58,028 nucleotides of DNA from assembly GCA_001002765.1 (NCBI GenBank), contig LCMS01000008.1:1-58028 (forward strand). The letters run 5' to 3'. This stretch comes from Candidatus Uhrbacteria bacterium GW2011_GWE2_46_68 (GTDB lineage: Bacteria; Patescibacteriota; Patescibacteriia; UBA9934; GWF2-40-263). Shown here piece after piece: positions 4,504 through 30,467 of this stretch (its first letter is position 1; every line of letters starts with the position of its first letter). The notes beneath the pieces were generated by a model. It did not search any database. It had not been told where the DNA came from and was given only the letters and a program-made list of their open reading frames with translations. The position numbers and the translations under genes are program-made.

Positions 4504-6837
4504 ATGTTTGGCGTTTTCAAAATAAAAATAAAAAGGGCAGGGAAAATAAGCGTCTTTAGTATTGTATTGACCGTGCTTTTGTTTGCCGGTTTTTTCCAAC
4601 CGATTTTTGTGCAAGCGCAAGTGGACCCTATCGCCACCACCGAGGCTGCACTTGAAACAGCATCCGGGGCTGTTCCTGGAATATACGCGAATCCTCCCGA
4701 AGGCGCGGCAAAGGCATTGGAAACCACGGATGAAAAAATCATCAAACCTACCATTCAAGTCGCGCTTTTAAGTGCGCTTCTCAATCTGGGGACTTTTGTA
4801 TTCGATCGTCTTGCCTATGATGCGGCCATGGCGGTCGCCACAGGAGGTGAGGGTCAATCACTACTCATTTGGGACAAGTCGGCTGTGGATAATTGGGCGC
4901 AATTTGGTTTGGATGTGGCAGGGGAGGCGATGGGATCTTTATCCGAGCTTTCCGGAGAGTTGCTCGACATCAAGTTTAATCTTTGTACACCCGAAGATCC
5001 TTTGATTCTTTTGGCTTTACAGCTTTCAATCAAACAAGCCTATCAACCCGAAGAGCCAAAATGTGATTTTCGTGATATCCAAAAAAATTGGAGCTCTTTT
5101 CTTTCCTCCACAGTGAGTCGTTATGTCACTCCCGAGGGGATCAGCCAGACGGTACTGGAAACATTTGGCAAAGGATTGCGGCCGGGAAATAACGAGCTAA
5201 GCGCAGCCATTGGTCTCAATATCAAGGTGCATGAGCAAGTGGCTCAAGCGAAATGGAAAAACTTTTTTACTCAAAATGCTTCGGATGGATTCCAGGATGT
5301 GCGGGATTTTTTAACCGGAACCGTCAAAACCCCGGCCTCCATTTTAAAGACAAAGTTTGAAGAAGACGTGGTCAAAGCGGAAGATAAAAAAGTAAATTTG
5401 ACCATGAGCGCGGTTTTGGAAAACACCCATCTTATCTCTGGTATGTTTTTGCAGGCAGCCAGTGTGTTTACCAATACGCTTTTATCCCAACTCCTCAACA
5501 AACTATATACAGGGTTGTTTGATATTGAACCTACGGAAATTGATTTATCCGATTATGAAGGCGTGTCGGTTGGAAGCATGGAAGATGCGGAGGAAAGTTT
5601 TTCACGCATCGTGACAACAAATCCCATTTCTGTAACCGAATATAATGCGTTGAGCGAATTTGTCGTATGTCCAAGCGGGGGAGTCATGAACCGCAATCTT
5701 AACAATTGTGTCATGGATGCAAATCTCGCGGCTGCAGTAGCGCGCGGGGAAACATCCGGAGAAACTTCTCTTACGGTGCAAGAAGCGATCGATGAAGGGT
5801 TGTTGCGCGGAGATTGGCCGCTTATTTCCCCTGAAGATTTGGCACGCAATCAAGACCCCTATTGCTATACCTATGGGTATTGCTATGGCAATGTCGTTAA
5901 AATGCGCAAAGCGCGCATTGTTCCGGTTGGATGGGAAATGGCTGCCATGCGCAACAGTTCTTCCAATCCTTCCACGCTTCAGGAAATTGTGGATGGATTC
6001 GATGATTGTGATGCAAACGGGAATATTGATGATGACACGCACAAGTGGTGCCATTTGATTGACCCCAATTGGGTGCTCAAATATCCAGACACACAATGTC
6101 GCGCTATAGCCATGGGTGAGATTATGACAACTTCACTGTCGTCCGGGCGTGCAAGTTCTTGTGTGGATACCCCAAGTTGCATTGAGGAAAATGGAGAAGG
6201 ACAGTGTATCGGCGGGTATGGGTATTGTGTGCGTGAGAAAAATACGTGGCAGTTTCGCGGGCAAGAATGTCCAAGCGAGTATGCCACATGTCTCTCGTTT
6301 ACCGAAAATTATTCCGGTGAAAAAGTGAATTATCTTTTGGATACCGTGGACTTTAGCGTGTGTGACAGCGAAAACGCGGGGTGCGAGTGGCTACGTACCA
6401 ATCAATATTATAACGATGGGGGAACACTTTCCGATACAAGCGATGATTCCTATGGTTGGCTTGGGCCAAACGAAACATTTGATACAGCCGCGCGCGCGGC
6501 ATCAGTGCAGTATGCCGGCACCTCACGATCCACAAGTCCCATCACCTATATGGCAGACTCCGGAACGGCCTATACATACAACCGCTATGCTTATGAGGAT
6601 CGCGTGTACTTTAATCATGAAGTCGAGGCTTGTACCTCAAGTGATGCGGGATGCGGTGAGTTTTACGAAATTGACAACGGGCTTACCTTAAACGTCATTC
6701 AAAATTCCAGTTTTGAAGATGATGAAGATGATGACAATGTCCCTGATTCTTGGAGCCGGATTATGTTTGGACCGATGAAACCGCACAGATCGTGCAACAA
6801 GGAATCACGCTTTCACCACACGCTTTTTATACCTTGA
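4504..6837 (+). CDS. Giant Cys-rich exported protein, N-terminal part (frameshift near 6750)
   Basis: Signal peptide ending VQA, hydrophobic helices, then Cys-rich modules; composition degrades after DDDNVPDSW, where the next frame takes over. Confidence 0.8.
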   Translation: MFGVFKIKIKRAGKISVFSIVLTVLLFAGFFQPIFVQAQVDPIATTEAALETASGAVPGIYANPPEGAAKALETTDEKIIKPTIQVALLSALLNLGTFVFDRLAYDAAMAVATGGEGQSLLIWDKSAVDNWAQFGLDVAGEAMGSLSELSGELLDIKFNLCTPEDPLILLALQLSIKQAYQPEEPKCDFRDIQKNWSSFLSSTVSRYVTPEGISQTVLETFGKGLRPGNNELSAAIGLNIKVHEQVAQAKWKNFFTQNASDGFQDVRDFLTGTVKTPASILKTKFEEDVVKAEDKKVNLTMSAVLENTHLISGMFLQAASVFTNTLLSQLLNKLYTGLFDIEPTEIDLSDYEGVSVGSMEDAEESFSRIVTTNPISVTEYNALSEFVVCPSGGVMNRNLNNCVMDANLAAAVARGETSGETSLTVQEAIDEGLLRGDWPLISPEDLARNQDPYCYTYGYCYGNVVKMRKARIVPVGWEMAAMRNSSSNPSTLQEIVDGFDDCDANGNIDDDTHKWCHLIDPNWVLKYPDTQCRAIAMGEIMTTSLSSGRASSCVDTPSCIEENGEGQCIGGYGYCVREKNTWQFRGQECPSEYATCLSFTENYSGEKVNYLLDTVDFSVCDSENAGCEWLRTNQYYNDGGTLSDTSDDSYGWLGPNETFDTAARAASVQYAGTSRSTSPITYMADSGTAYTYNRYAYEDRVYFNHEVEACTSSDAGCGEFYEIDNGLTLNVIQNSSFEDDEDDDNVPDSWSRIMFGPMKPHRSCNKESRFHHTLFIP

Positions 6838-20382: not shown

Positions 20383-21645
20383 ATGATTGATCCAAAACTT
20401 CTCATTGATGCGCCGGAACTTGTTGTTGCAAACAACCGTAAACGGCATAAAAATCTTGATATCGCAAGCGTTTCTTCCCTGTCTTCTTCACGCAAAACAT
20501 TGCTCGAAAAAGTTGAAAACCTACGAGCCAAAGCAAACGAGATCGCTGGCCGTATTCCAAAAACCGATGCAAACGATCGGCCTACTTTGATCGAAGAAGG
20601 TCGCCGTATCAAAGAAGAAGGAAAGATCCTCGAGGTCGAGCTTCAAAAAATTGAAGCCGAGTTTGAAGCAGCATGGCGCCAATATCCCAACATTTTGCGT
20701 GAGGATGTTCCCGAAGGCACAGGTGAGGAAGGTAATCAAGTCATTCGAACTTTTGGAACGCCTCCAACTTTTCCATTCACCCCCAAAGATCATTTAGAAA
20801 TCGGAGAAAAGCATGGATGGATTGATATGGAGCGTGCAGCCAAGGTTTCCGGCGCACGCTTTGCCTATCTCAAAGGTGAGATGGTTGAGCTTGAACTCGC
20901 ACTTTTGCAATATACGTTTAGTACCTTGATCAAAGAAGGATTCACCCCGGTTTTTCCTCCACACATAATTTTTACCAAAGCCATGGGAGCTATGGGATAT
21001 TTGGAACATGGGGGAGAGGAAGAAGTGTATCATCTCAAAAACGATGACACGGTGTTGATCGGAACTTCCGAGCAAGCCATGGGGCCCATGCTCACAGATG
21101 AGATGCTTGCAGAAGATGAGTTGCCATTGCGTTTTGCCGCATTTTCTCCTTGTTATCGTCGAGAGGCGGGAAGTTATGGAAAAGATTTGCGCGGCATTTT
21201 ACGTATGCACCAGTTTGATAAAATTGAGATGTTCAGTTTTACCGTACCCGAAGTGTCCGATGCCGAGCATGAGTTTTTGCTTGGTGCGCAAGAGAAATTG
21301 ATGCAAGGGCTCGGACTTCCATATCGTGTGATGAAACTTTGCGCCGGCGACATCGGTGCACCTTCGGCCCGCACCTATGATATTGAAACATGGATGCCTT
21401 CACAAAACACCTATCGCGAAACGCATTCCACCTCAAACACAACTGACTATCAGACACGACGATTGAATATTCGTGTGCGACGAGAGGGAAAAAATGCGCT
21501 TGCCCACGCACTCAACGGAACTGCCTTTGCCATGGGGCGCATCATGATCGCTCTGATCGAAAATAATCAGCAAGAAGATGGGAGTGTAAAGGTGCCAGAA
21601 GTATTGCAACCTTGGATAGGGAAAGATCAAATCGGAGTAAAGTAA
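20383..21645 (+). CDS. serS: Serine--tRNA ligase
   Basis: N-terminal coiled coil; GTSE, CYRREAGS, RMHQF-x-K-x-E and HALNGT motifs. Confidence 0.97.
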   Translation: MIDPKLLIDAPELVVANNRKRHKNLDIASVSSLSSSRKTLLEKVENLRAKANEIAGRIPKTDANDRPTLIEEGRRIKEEGKILEVELQKIEAEFEAAWRQYPNILREDVPEGTGEEGNQVIRTFGTPPTFPFTPKDHLEIGEKHGWIDMERAAKVSGARFAYLKGEMVELELALLQYTFSTLIKEGFTPVFPPHIIFTKAMGAMGYLEHGGEEEVYHLKNDDTVLIGTSEQAMGPMLTDEMLAEDELPLRFAAFSPCYRREAGSYGKDLRGILRMHQFDKIEMFSFTVPEVSDAEHEFLLGAQEKLMQGLGLPYRVMKLCAGDIGAPSARTYDIETWMPSQNTYRETHSTSNTTDYQTRRLNIRVRREGKNALAHALNGTAFAMGRIMIALIENNQQEDGSVKVPEVLQPWIGKDQIGVK

Positions 21646-21655
21646 TCCACAAGAG

Positions 21656-21685
21656 AAAACCCCAGTAAACACGCCTGGGGTTTTT
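21656..21685 (+). terminator. Intrinsic terminator of serS
   Basis: aaaaccccag-N9-ctggggttttt. Confidence 0.8.
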
Positions 21686-21686
21686 G

Positions 21687-21695
21687 TTATCCACA
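21687..21695 (+). promoter_or_regulatory. Perfect DnaA box
   Basis: TTATCCACA. Confidence 0.55.
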
Positions 21696-21714
21696 ATTTA
21701 TCATATAAAAACCG

Positions 21715-21742
21715 TTGACTTTAGCAAAAAATACCGTATTCT
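21715..21742 (+). promoter_or_regulatory. Sigma70-like promoter of the putative ncRNA
   Basis: TTGACT-N16-TATTCT, 6 nt upstream of the first helix. Confidence 0.65.
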
Positions 21743-21748
21743 GGATTA

Positions 21749-22415
21749 TTGTCGAGGGCAGGTAGGCTGTTCCCCGGAAGAGGATGCAGCCCTACATCGA
21801 CAACACGGACGCTCTTGTCCACAGTGGGATAATTCTCGCCAAAACAGATCAAGGCGCGCAAGCACCAGAAATCTGTTATGCGAGGAAAACAGACAGGTAA
21901 AGCCCCGGAGAGTCCGGGACACGAAGCCGGTTTGGCAAGAGGTTCAGTGTTTTTCTTGGCCGAGAAGGCCACGGATGTACGAGAGTCGAAACGGTTGTTA
22001 GCGGTACGGTCACGATGGCAAGTGAGAGACCCCCCGGGTCCCCAAGTGCCTCAAGCGTCTTCTCCAAGATATCCCGCGGGGGTGAACTAGGATAAAGTCG
22101 CGACCAAGACTCTCCGTGACGTAAACACGCGCCACGTTTGCAGCTTTATGCGAAAACCCTCCAGGGGTGTCGGCAACCACAGCTGCCAACTGGACTGTGA
22201 GCTTCACACAAACTGTGTGAGCGGATGGCCCTACACAGGCCGACCGCATGCACAGGAAGCGCACCCATCCGTGTGCGCTCCCCGCATCTTGTCGTCGTTG
22301 ACGTCCTCCCCTCTCTCCTTTTGGGACGACGGAAGCTTCGCTTGGCGGGGAGCGCCTGCCCAACCTTTGTTCCTTTTCCCGACCGTGCGGCACCCCAGGT
22401 GCCGCTTTTCTTTTT
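21749..22415 (+). ncRNA. Putative large (~660 nt) structured non-coding RNA of unknown family
   Basis: GC-rich block between AT-rich flanks; own promoter and terminator; many hairpins and long-range helices; no credible ORF. Confidence 0.65.
22387..22415 (+). terminator. Intrinsic terminator of the putative ncRNA
   Basis: gcggcacc-cca-ggtgccgc followed by ttttcttttt. Confidence 0.85.
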
Positions 22416-22462
22416 GTGGAATAAGTCCCATGGGCACCATAAGACCTATCATCGAGCAAAAT

Positions 22463-22471
22463 TTATCCACA
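22463..22471 (+). promoter_or_regulatory. Perfect DnaA box
   Basis: TTATCCACA, followed by an AT-rich tract. Confidence 0.55.
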
Positions 22472-23076
22472 ACAAAATGTTTTTTTCCTTCAACACAAAA
22501 GAGTTTGGCACGCTTTTTGTGTGCAGTTTTATTTTTTTGTCCGAATCATGCAAACAAAGATTCCTTTCCATATTATTTGTTCGGCGAAAAAGGAGAATGC
22601 ATTTTTGCAAAATATGTCAGCAGACGGGAAACACAATCACTTTTTTTCAAAAATAGAGAAACGATGAGAAAATTTTTTTCATTTTTGTTTTAGATACTGT
22701 TGATCGACCTCAACAAAATTCATAGCTCAACCAAGCTAAAAAAGTATTGACCCATGTTCAAATGTTTGATGATCTAAGGTTAGATCGTCTGCGCAAAAAA
22801 TTATCTGCCTTACGCGAACGGAAAGATGCACATGTGAGGTATCGAACATCTTTCTATCGCAAACGCGGAACACTTGCGCACAAAGGAGGGGAGGGGCGAT
22901 CCGACCAAAACGAAGAAAAGGGGATGAAAGAGCATGCGGGGGTTTGCTCCGTCATCCCCCTTCGCTTCCCTCATAAGCGGTGCGTCGAATATTTTCTGAC
23001 AAGACAGGAGGCCTCGTGTGTTGTCAGAGATGGTCGATGTCCGGCCTCTCGCGTTCATTCACAAGCGAGGTTTCCC

Positions 23077-28613: not shown

Positions 28614-30467
28614 ATGGAGGACACTACACATAATCGAACATATGCCGATCTTCCCGAAGATGTGCTCTTGTTTTTGAGCGATGTGGATGCGGTAGATCAA
28701 GCGCAAGCATTTTTGAAAAAATACGGAGGCAAAGAGGAGGATGCCGCATTACTTTTAGGAACAGGAGAACAGATTGTACTTGGCGCAAAGGCTCTGGAGG
28801 ATTTACCGAAAATTTTAACTGATCTTTTTGGGATCGAGGAAAGCAAGGTGGCGGTTGCAGCGGCGGAATATGCAACAGTGCGATTACTTCCGATTGCCGG
28901 AGCGATCGGGGATGTGTCCGGACAAATCGTAAAATGGGGAGGAAAACTTGGTGATCTTTCACAAAATCAAGGCGCGATTTTGCCGCAAGTGACAGCCGAA
29001 CAATTTGTGGCACATGTGATAGAAGAGCTCAAAATCACCGAGGCCGAACCCGATCCCGCCGCGCAACATCGTCTCCTGCTTCTTTTATCTTCGTATGTGA
29101 AGGGTATTCGGGATTTGTCCGAGACAAAGGATGCGCTGATGCGTGGAGAAAAAATCGGTGGCATGGAATTACCCGAGGAAATTGCCGATGAACTCCTTTC
29201 TTACGTCAATGACAAGATGAAGTTCTTGCGCATTGCGGATGCAAAAAAAGAAGAGCCTTCTCACACATCAACAAAACCGGTTGTCCAAGCTTTGCCTCGT
29301 CCTCGTGTGCTGCGGGATATCAAACAGCCCACTCCTCCTTTGGCTCAAAAACCCGTGGAGCCAAAACCTGTTGTTCCACCTCCCGTTTCGCCCCCTGCCG
29401 TTTCTACAAAACCTCTTGCTCCCATCATCAAAAAACCAGAACCTGTGAAAGAGGAGGATTTTGGCAAAGCCGAAGAGCGTGAGGTAAAAGAAATCGCAAA
29501 CAAGCGCGCAGTTGCCACGTCATTTTCAAAAGAGACTGTACAGACAGATCAAATCGCGCAAATGATTTTACAAAAAATCAATCTTCCACTTACAGATCAG
29601 TTGCAAAAACGTTTTGCCGCATTGGTGGATGCGCGGCTTTGTGGTGTACGAGACGCCGATCAAACGCGTCAGCATTTGGCAAAACCCATTTTGCAAGGAG
29701 GACTGGGAATGGCAGGAGAGATGCTCGTGAAGGTGAGCGATATTTTGGAGGAAGAAGTGGGGCGCGTTTTTAAACCTCATGGGGAAAAGATTGCACAAGA
29801 AAAACAGAAATCTTTTCAAGAACAGAGACAAAAGAGCGAGCAAAAAAAAGAGGTAGATACGCGCGAGTCGCAACTTCTTTCAAAACGGTACGCGTCGATT
29901 ACAGGCAAAGCGCCCACAGAATCGGTTGAACCCATGCATGCAACGGGCGTGCGTGTGACCGCAAGCCAGTCCATTTCCGAACATTTAGATCGTCAAGAAG
30001 AAAAAATAGATAAAGCAAAAGTAAGACAAGTGATCGAAGCCGCAAAGCCTCCCGCTTTTGTCTCTACGGTTTCTCATTCCACACCAACCATTTTGCCTGC
30101 GGGCGATCGATCGAAAGTGCAGGATGTGCATTTCGCAAAACACTTGGAAGGATCGGTAGAGGAATTGAAACGTATGACGCTCGTGGATTTTCGCCGTCTT
30201 GCTTCGTCCGCAAGCGCGTCTGTTGATCGCGTCGTGGATAAAATCGAATTGTTGCGCGAGCAGGGGCCGGATCGAATGGTGGCGGGAGTGCAGGCATGGA
30301 AGCAGTCACCTTTATATCTTTCCTATGTGGCGCTTGCCAAAGAAGCGGTGTTGTCAGGACAGTCCATCAAAGCGTTACTTGCGGAGAAAAGAAAAATGGC
30401 GCCCGATGAACTTGGAAACGAAGAATTGGATGCGATCATGTCCATTAACGAACAGTTGAGATATTAG
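28614..30467 (+). CDS. Hypothetical protein with an internally duplicated domain and Pro-rich linker
   Basis: G-[IV]-RD-x2-[EQ]-T...GG-[ML] motif occurs twice; lies within the T4SS-like operon. Confidence 0.8.
   Translation: MEDTTHNRTYADLPEDVLLFLSDVDAVDQAQAFLKKYGGKEEDAALLLGTGEQIVLGAKALEDLPKILTDLFGIEESKVAVAAAEYATVRLLPIAGAIGDVSGQIVKWGGKLGDLSQNQGAILPQVTAEQFVAHVIEELKITEAEPDPAAQHRLLLLLSSYVKGIRDLSETKDALMRGEKIGGMELPEEIADELLSYVNDKMKFLRIADAKKEEPSHTSTKPVVQALPRPRVLRDIKQPTPPLAQKPVEPKPVVPPPVSPPAVSTKPLAPIIKKPEPVKEEDFGKAEEREVKEIANKRAVATSFSKETVQTDQIAQMILQKINLPLTDQLQKRFAALVDARLCGVRDADQTRQHLAKPILQGGLGMAGEMLVKVSDILEEEVGRVFKPHGEKIAQEKQKSFQEQRQKSEQKKEVDTRESQLLSKRYASITGKAPTESVEPMHATGVRVTASQSISEHLDRQEEKIDKAKVRQVIEAAKPPAFVSTVSHSTPTILPAGDRSKVQDVHFAKHLEGSVEELKRMTLVDFRRLASSASASVDRVVDKIELLREQGPDRMVAGVQAWKQSPLYLSYVALAKEAVLSGQSIKALLAEKRKMAPDELGNEELDAIMSINEQLRY

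Follow-up and report, generated by a model that had tools for sequence, protein, structure and literature searches.

A candidate gene for a large structured noncoding RNA, probably of a new family, downstream of serS in a small-genome groundwater bacterium

Large structured bacterial RNAs of unknown function are few, and each of them is a source of new RNA biology. The OLE RNA, of about 600 nt, occurs in Gram-positive extremophiles and anaerobes. ROOL and GOLLD are large ornate RNAs that form homo-oligomeric complexes made of RNA only (PMC12286853). In a limited literature search, no large structured RNA of unknown function was found described for the candidate phyla radiation.

The window analyzed here is the whole stretch of 58,028 nt from Candidatus Uhrbacteria bacterium GW2011_GWE2_46_68. 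Downstream of serS (20383-21645) and before the next gene, it contains a block of about 700 nt with a GC content of 57% compared to 46% genome-wide; its 600-nt segment ranks 179 out of 10,390 for GC. Judged from the sequence, positions 21715-22415 of the + strand are probably a stand-alone gene for a structured noncoding RNA of about 660 nt that belongs to a new family. Metagenome contigs were scanned with SerS; in one of them, L052, whose SerS is 91% identical, the block follows serS directly and is 80.9% identical over 782 nt. The original prediction had described a stand-alone large RNA, possibly of a new class, retained in a reduced genome. The noncoding unit with its conserved promoter-like site and terminator and the lack of any Rfam match agree with the first part of that claim, but the idea of retention had to be given up.

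The block resembles OLE in its size, its stand-alone gene, its multi-domain fold (predicted for the block), its conserved stretches between helices and its unknown function. It differs from OLE in having no Rfam match to that family and no partner-protein genes seen in its neighborhood, and OLE is present in many species whereas the block is present in one genus-level lineage. With ROOL and GOLLD, the block shares the size class, the lack of an associated protein, a GC-rich and, by prediction, highly structured character and a patchy distribution. Self-complementary stretches of the block, such as CCCGCGGG at 22073-22080 in its most conserved part, could in principle mediate self-association. 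Unlike ROOL and GOLLD, the block is fixed in the chromosome, with housekeeping genes on both sides. Neither of their Rfam models matches it, it has no phage or plasmid context, and a search of phages, plasmids and viral contigs with the block gave no matches.

Known RNA families were searched with Rfam 15 (4227 models, including OLE, ROOL, GOLLD, HEARO, group I and group II introns, rRNA and riboswitches), with the gathering score as the criterion. In the whole window only four tRNAs reached this score, all of them outside the block. When E values up to 10 were allowed, seven matches were obtained in 21600-22500, with E of 0.45-7.6 and 15-18 bits against cut-offs of 40-100, and they were judged to be junk. 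The L052 copy gave no match at E up to 10. The cmscan search that had been proposed as a check of novelty matched no family in either copy. RNase P RNA was rejected, the single match of the genome being located at 5913-6361 of another contig, C25 (165.5 bits), and tmRNA was rejected as well, since the tmRNA lies at 6107-6496 of contig C17 and ARAGORN finds nothing in 21500-22800. This agrees with the original statement that the block lacks the signature motifs of these two RNAs. Like the proposed RNA of the block, the type A RNase P RNA is large and structured, has a TTGAC-type promoter of its own (TTGACG-N17-CATAGT in this genome) and folds with a similar z, but the block has no match to its model. 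The 6S RNA model, a weak one that recovered 5 of 14 known genomes in the control, did not match either.

One hairpin near the 5' end of the block (21762-21795) carries a GGAA tetraloop and a 3' strand that we take to be reminiscent of SRP RNA domain IV. With the small and large bacterial SRP models, no SRP RNA was found in the genome or in 73 family genomes. The genome lacks Ffh, FtsY and any SRP54 GTPase domain, in agreement with a six-frame check that showed no DTAGR motif, and neither 60 relatives nor a sample of 100 genomes from the phylum gave a real match to the SRP system. An SRP RNA would thus have no partner in this organism. In view of the lack of a match to the SRP models and of a genome without Ffh and FtsY, SRP RNA was rejected; the block is also six times longer than the 4.5S RNA. 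The loss of SRP has already been reported for Parcubacteria (PMC4508563). The genome of 1.06 Mb, the groundwater runs and the absence of an SRP system are consistent with the earlier assignment of the DNA to the candidate phyla radiation.

If the block belonged to a known family but were too divergent or too expanded for Rfam to detect (SRP RNA, an RNase P-like RNA, a group II intron without its ORF or a transposon guide RNA), the GGAA-capped hairpin in a genome without a detectable SRP RNA would be explained. We consider this highly improbable, as neither copy matches any Rfam model at E up to 10 beyond the junk matches, the protein partners of SRP are missing, RNase P RNA and tmRNA are encoded elsewhere, and the adjacent genes include no reverse transcriptase, nuclease or transposase.

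The serS gene is followed by an intrinsic terminator (21660-21685, +), the hairpin of which is kept in L052 and is preceded by an A run and followed by a T run; given these flanking runs, it could stop transcripts of the - strand too. Next comes a box, TTATCCACA (21687-21695, +), which lies upstream of the promoter, is identical in L052 and has a second copy at 22463-22471. GTTATNCACA follows serS in most family relatives too. A consensus scan found a promoter-like site, TTGACT-N16-TATTCT, at 21715-21742 on the + strand, and L052 has TTGACC-N16-TATCCT at the aligned place, so that both hexamers are kept while the 16-nt spacer between them has diverged. The -10 hexamer is weak in both copies. 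The body of the proposed RNA (21749-22386, +), with a 5' end inferred from the -10 hexamer, is 80% identical to L052:5363-6025. It is closed by a predicted intrinsic terminator (22387-22415, +), which consists of a hairpin at 22387-22405 and a T run and was also found by the consensus scan. L052 keeps this terminator, and in the 950-nt stretch scanned, the promoter-like site and the terminator are the only such sites. The gene would accordingly carry its own sigma-70-type promoter and its own intrinsic terminator.

In 2.2 kb of this region, 6 promoter-like sites were found compared to 1.8 +/- 1.3 expected, and 4 terminator-like sites compared to 3.1 +/- 1.8 expected. Such sites are therefore common here and taken alone are weak evidence. 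The scan did recover independently the TTGACT at 21715, the TATTCT at 21737 and the 22387-22415 terminator, which had all been named in the original prediction, and the promoter hexamers, the helix strands and the GCAA at 21858 were each located at the positions given for them. Among the helix strands, ttgtcga starts at 21749 and tcgacaa at 21797, ctcgc at 21835 and gcgag at 21880, aacagat at 21843 and atctgtt at 21871, cccgga at 21904 and tccggg at 21913, tggcc at 21957 and ggcca at 21967, and tcacaca at 22204 and tgtgtga at 22214, while for the longer-range helices cacgg is at 21970, agagtc at 21982, gactct at 22108 and ccgtg at 22114.

Two more sequencing runs also had contigs with variants of the block, about 90% identical in X11 and about 82% in X14, and the matches stop at 22416 and 22420. 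Over L052, X11 and X14, homology ends at 22416-22425, at most 10 bases past the T run of the terminator. The AT-rich spacer that follows outside the RNA (22416-22733, +; GC 0.32-0.37) cannot be aligned with L052 but can be aligned with a second contig of the X11 run. No RNA run was present among the sequencing runs listed as holding the stretch.

In BLAST searches of 60 relatives and then of all 72 other family genomes, the block gave only chance matches of 20-50 nt, the best of which sits within a 500-aa ORF. A covariance model of the conserved core (R1) detected nothing in the 72 other family genomes or in 150 genomes sampled from the order, and a model of the 5' domain (R2) detected nothing in the 72 family genomes. 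Over 80 metagenome loci, R1 found L052 and one match of 19.4 bits in contig L064, which was rejected as chance because it lies within a 656-aa ORF. An exact 21-mer of the block had no hits in all species genomes. An exact 19-mer had three, in a member of the Chloroflexia and two Muribaculaceae; these showed no further similarity and were discarded, about four being expected by chance. As nothing was found in the family, the order or the exact-word scans, a broad, ancient function is excluded. The RNA had been thought to be retained in a reduced genome, but this does not fit the searches of the 72 family genomes and the 150 sampled order genomes, in which it was not found. The order kinase-serS-M23 peptidase gene without the block is kept in 26 of 29 family loci, which points to a gain in one genus-level lineage.

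The block and the AT-rich spacer form an insertion between serS and a promoter/leader unit of the M23 peptidase gene that is present family-wide. The origin or insertion of the gene would thus belong to a single genus-level lineage of groundwater bacteria with small genomes, where it came to lie after the serS terminator and ahead of this ancestral unit. The promoter region of the block (21708-21731) weakly resembles the family M23 promoter motif (nhmmer E 0.52), and TTATCCACAA is present on both sides of the block in the window, the second copy being missing in L052. Together, the TTATCCACAA copies and the M23-like promoter region hint at a local duplication during the origin of the block. 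A target-site duplication made of the two TTATCCACAA copies is not supported, given that L052 lacks the second one. In a separate metagenome contig, L053 (SerS 84% identical), an ORF with an IS30-type HTH_38 domain begins about 70 nt after serS (1897-2328), and the contig ends within it.

The block and its L052 counterpart are 80% identical over 676 columns, with several 50-column windows at 0.94-0.96 and a core at 96% column identity over 190 columns. Neutral yardsticks between the same two genomes are lower: identity at four-fold sites is 59% in serS (n=172) and 63% in the upstream kinase gene (n=218). The spacer between the kinase gene and serS cannot be aligned between them. With 80-96% identity against 59-63% at four-fold sites, the block looks selected as a nucleotide sequence, and it appears to be under purifying selection. 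Conservation is patchy rather than uniform, with a core and variable hairpins.

The same comparison bears on whether the block is only a functionless remnant, made of foreign GC-rich DNA or of a decayed gene caught between two terminators. A remnant would fit an insertion relative to the family, with a GC content above the genome mean, in a very narrow lineage, and the IS30-type ORF at the same junction in L053 indicates that the site accepts insertions. Decaying DNA would not be expected to exceed the neutral sites of the two genomes in identity, to be conserved in patches or to preserve pairing on one strand, and the block has no phage, plasmid or Pfam match. We regard a remnant as quite unlikely, and a structured RNA gene remains our preferred reading.

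The M23 peptidase gene lies downstream of the block on the same strand. Its start is ATG 23077 and not TTG 22747, the latter TTG being part of a -35 box. The 771-aa ORF that can be drawn from TTG 22747 is over-extended, and the M23 lipoprotein begins at ATG 23077. In family loci, the serS-M23 interval contains four conserved parts: the GTTATNCACA box, a palindrome, a hairpin that contains TTGAC with the promoter motif, and a GC-rich leader of about 300 nt. In the window, 22734-23076 (+) is taken up by the promoter motif shared across the family and by the leader, which measures about 300 nt. An nhmmer profile of the leaders of 22 relatives matches 22723-22796 with E 9e-6, from which it follows that this genome keeps the ancestral M23 promoter/leader unit. 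The same leader profile gives only E 0.52 within the block, and the idea that the block is an expanded copy of the leader was rejected.

The leader shows features of its own. In 13 relatives it ends in a conserved GTCGAC...GTTGAC hairpin, of which the 3' arm can pair alternatively with a downstream GTCAAC just before the ribosome-binding site. This terminal hairpin covaries, 4 of its 18 pairs being changed on both sides among 13 sequences. No Rfam family reached the gathering score in 20 M23-leader loci (among L023-L050). On these sequence features, the leader may represent a cis-regulatory RNA, not yet described, that belongs to M23 peptidase genes.

A block directly upstream of the M23 gene and on the same strand could also be a cis-acting leader or attenuator, in which transcripts started at 21715 would traverse the block and the terminator at 22387 would decide on M23 transcription. 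The M23 gene of the family has a long structured leader anyway, and the block promoter region is weakly like the M23 promoter motif at the E of 0.52. But the M23 gene keeps its own promoter motif and leader about 320 nt past the terminator. In L052, the block is conserved although the M23 gene is replaced downstream by convergent genes (TrmB-like, Lgt and amidase), and homology stops at the terminator. A cis-acting function is unlikely on this evidence, although we would place it ahead of the other alternatives, and the preferred reading is still an RNA with a gene of its own.

The original prediction stated that the block has no credible ORF, and the comparison with L052 bears this out. The two copies differ by several 1-nt indels that shift the frame, and their substitutions by phase are 41:37:37, without three-base periodicity. 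None of the 10 ORFs of at least 20 aa in the block is conserved; in L052, nine of them are interrupted by frameshifts or stops, and the tenth has a different sequence. Nine of the block ORFs were compared with Pfam and gave no match at E < 0.08, and a 70-aa ORF of the block had no relative among proteins of 38-123 aa. When the 10 ORFs were looked up in public protein collections, four overlapping ones were found filed as proteins, at 21878-22090 (+), 22010-22459 (-), 22148-22693 (+) and 22225-22656 (+), all from the copy in the window; one of the four is recorded on 9 contigs. All four overlap the RNA block and very likely stem from erroneous gene calling.

The survey covers ORFs of at least 20 aa, and an mRNA that encodes a very small protein (<20 aa) and has long, structured UTRs would lie outside it. 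Such an mRNA would have to carry about 600 nt that are conserved without three-base periodicity, next to no conserved ORF of at least 20 aa, and we rate it as the least probable of all the readings considered. The noncoding RNA therefore stays the favored product of the locus.

The structure of this RNA was compared over the two full copies, from the window and L052; the X11 and X14 variants were left out, 40 of their 243 differences being listed. On the + strand, both copies fold better than shuffled sequences, with a z of -4.55 (20 shuffles) and, in a repeat, -3.9 for the window copy and -4.7 for the L052 copy. For comparison, the RNase P RNA of the genome has -5.7, the tmRNA -2.6 and seven neighboring coding windows -0.6 to -2.65. 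In the predicted consensus, long-range helices (21756-21761 with 22356-22361, 21803-21809 with 22269-22275 and 21981-21987 with 22108-22114) close the whole molecule and its domains, around a near-invariant core with variable arms. These helices would close a fold of several domains, in which the core is highly conserved and rich in junctions and the outer hairpins vary, two of the latter being GNRA-capped. No tRNA-like parts, tandem repeats or direct repeats were found in the block (ARAGORN over 21500-22800 and repeat searches).

The most conserved part is a multi-branched core at 21949-22136 (+), predicted to be closed by GAGAGUC/GACUCUC and described by model R1 with 60 pairs. At the ends of the molecule, gggcagg and cctgccc had been proposed to tie the RNA together. 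The two motifs are indeed located at 21756 and 22355, and in the consensus fold GGGCAG (21756-21761, +) pairs with CUGCCC (22356-22361); the helix itself is a prediction, both of its strands being invariant in the two copies. The 11-bp helix of 22275-22285 with 22345-22355 (+) is perfect, as had been claimed. It encloses an insert that is variable in length and poorly conserved (48% identical, with indels), and in L052 one of its C-G pairs is changed to U-G. The variable GNRA-capped hairpin at 21835-21884 (+) has a GCAA loop in the window and a GUAA loop in L052, where the stem is partly re-registered; in this helix (helix 6), 2 pairs are changed on both sides and 2 on one side. One proposed hairpin, tcacaca/tgtgtga (22204-22220), had to be abandoned, as it is not kept in L052; an alternative pairing of 22214-22220 with 22249-22255 in the consensus fold fits both copies.

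Folding energy alone cannot choose the strand of this RNA, since the - strand folds equally well, with a z of -5.8 that is lower than that of the + strand. The same is true for the fitted consensus. RNAalifold on the two copies gave 181 pairs for the + strand (157 invariant, 6 changed on both sides and 18 on one side) and 182 pairs for the - strand, of which 3 were changed on both sides; with fits so nearly equal, the consensus cannot decide between the strands. In a separate strand test, the substitutions of one copy were scored on the pairs of the MFE structure of the other, and the null was obtained from 2000 permutations of the substitutions among paired columns holding the same base. On the + strand, 21 pairs were broken with the first copy as reference compared to 33.2 +/- 2.1 under the null, and 29 compared to 42.6 +/- 2.6 with the second copy; in both cases none of the 2000 permutations was as good. 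On the - strand, the numbers were 37 compared to 37.9 and 38 compared to 42.0, neither of which is significant. The test uses one pair of related sequences and MFE predictions that are error-prone at 660 nt, and within these bounds it supports a fold conserved on the + strand. Differences between the copies are found in 63 of 438 paired columns compared to 70 of 238 unpaired columns. Covariation in the helices had been proposed as a check. It amounts to 6 of 181 pairs changed on both sides in two sequences, whereas the avoidance of broken pairs on the + strand goes beyond chance.

These results also apply to the possibility that the product is an RNA of the - strand, or that the block functions at the DNA level, for instance by binding proteins in connection with the TTATCCACA boxes. 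The z of the - strand, a serS terminator that could end a - strand transcript and the TTATCCACA-like boxes that flank the block would agree with one or the other. However, - strand pairs are broken at the chance rate, and the sole conserved promoter-like site and a unidirectional terminator are both on the + strand. We know of no precedent for a GC-rich DNA site of 660 nt, and a pair of boxes more typical of an origin is present on another contig, C3 (at 28817 and 28848). A - strand product or a DNA function is very unlikely, and the + strand RNA is retained as the preferred product.

The TTATCCACA box is presumably a match to the DnaA-box consensus, and it occurs in 45 exact copies in the genome compared to about 8 expected. 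On C3, the two exact TTATCCACA boxes at 28817 and 28848 are 31 nt apart in an AT-rich context, and by their sequence they may mark a replication origin. The block itself is unlikely to be the origin, given the closer box pair on C3 and the lack of a strand switch of genes at the block. A motif of about 30 nt that is built around TTATCCACAG, with CTTGTCTA to one side and TCTTTTAC to the other, was observed in about 20 copies on both strands of contigs C1, C3, C5, C10 and others, the 9-mer itself being present 45 times compared to about 8 expected. This TTATCCACAG-centered motif may serve as a promoter or a regulator site, or it may be a small repeat.

With regard to function, we suggest that the RNA would act in trans as a stably folded molecule, and we prefer this to regulation by base pairing or a role as a cis leader. 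It is possible, if doubtful, that it serves as a scaffold (of an RNP or of an RNA-only assembly) or as a ribozyme. As a tentative hypothesis, to which we give somewhat more credit, it could represent a new class of large ornate RNA, born or captured in one genus-level clade of ultra-small groundwater bacteria without SRP, and be a ribozyme or a self-assembling particle like those of ROOL and GOLLD, with no dedicated protein gene in its neighborhood.

The narrow range of the block limits its general importance and what comparative analysis can prove. Its youth means that close relatives with and without the RNA are present at the same locus, so that its origin could be traceable. If the proposal is true, an RNA of 660 nt was gained recently in a genome of 1.06 Mb, and strongly reduced genomes would still invest in new large RNAs.
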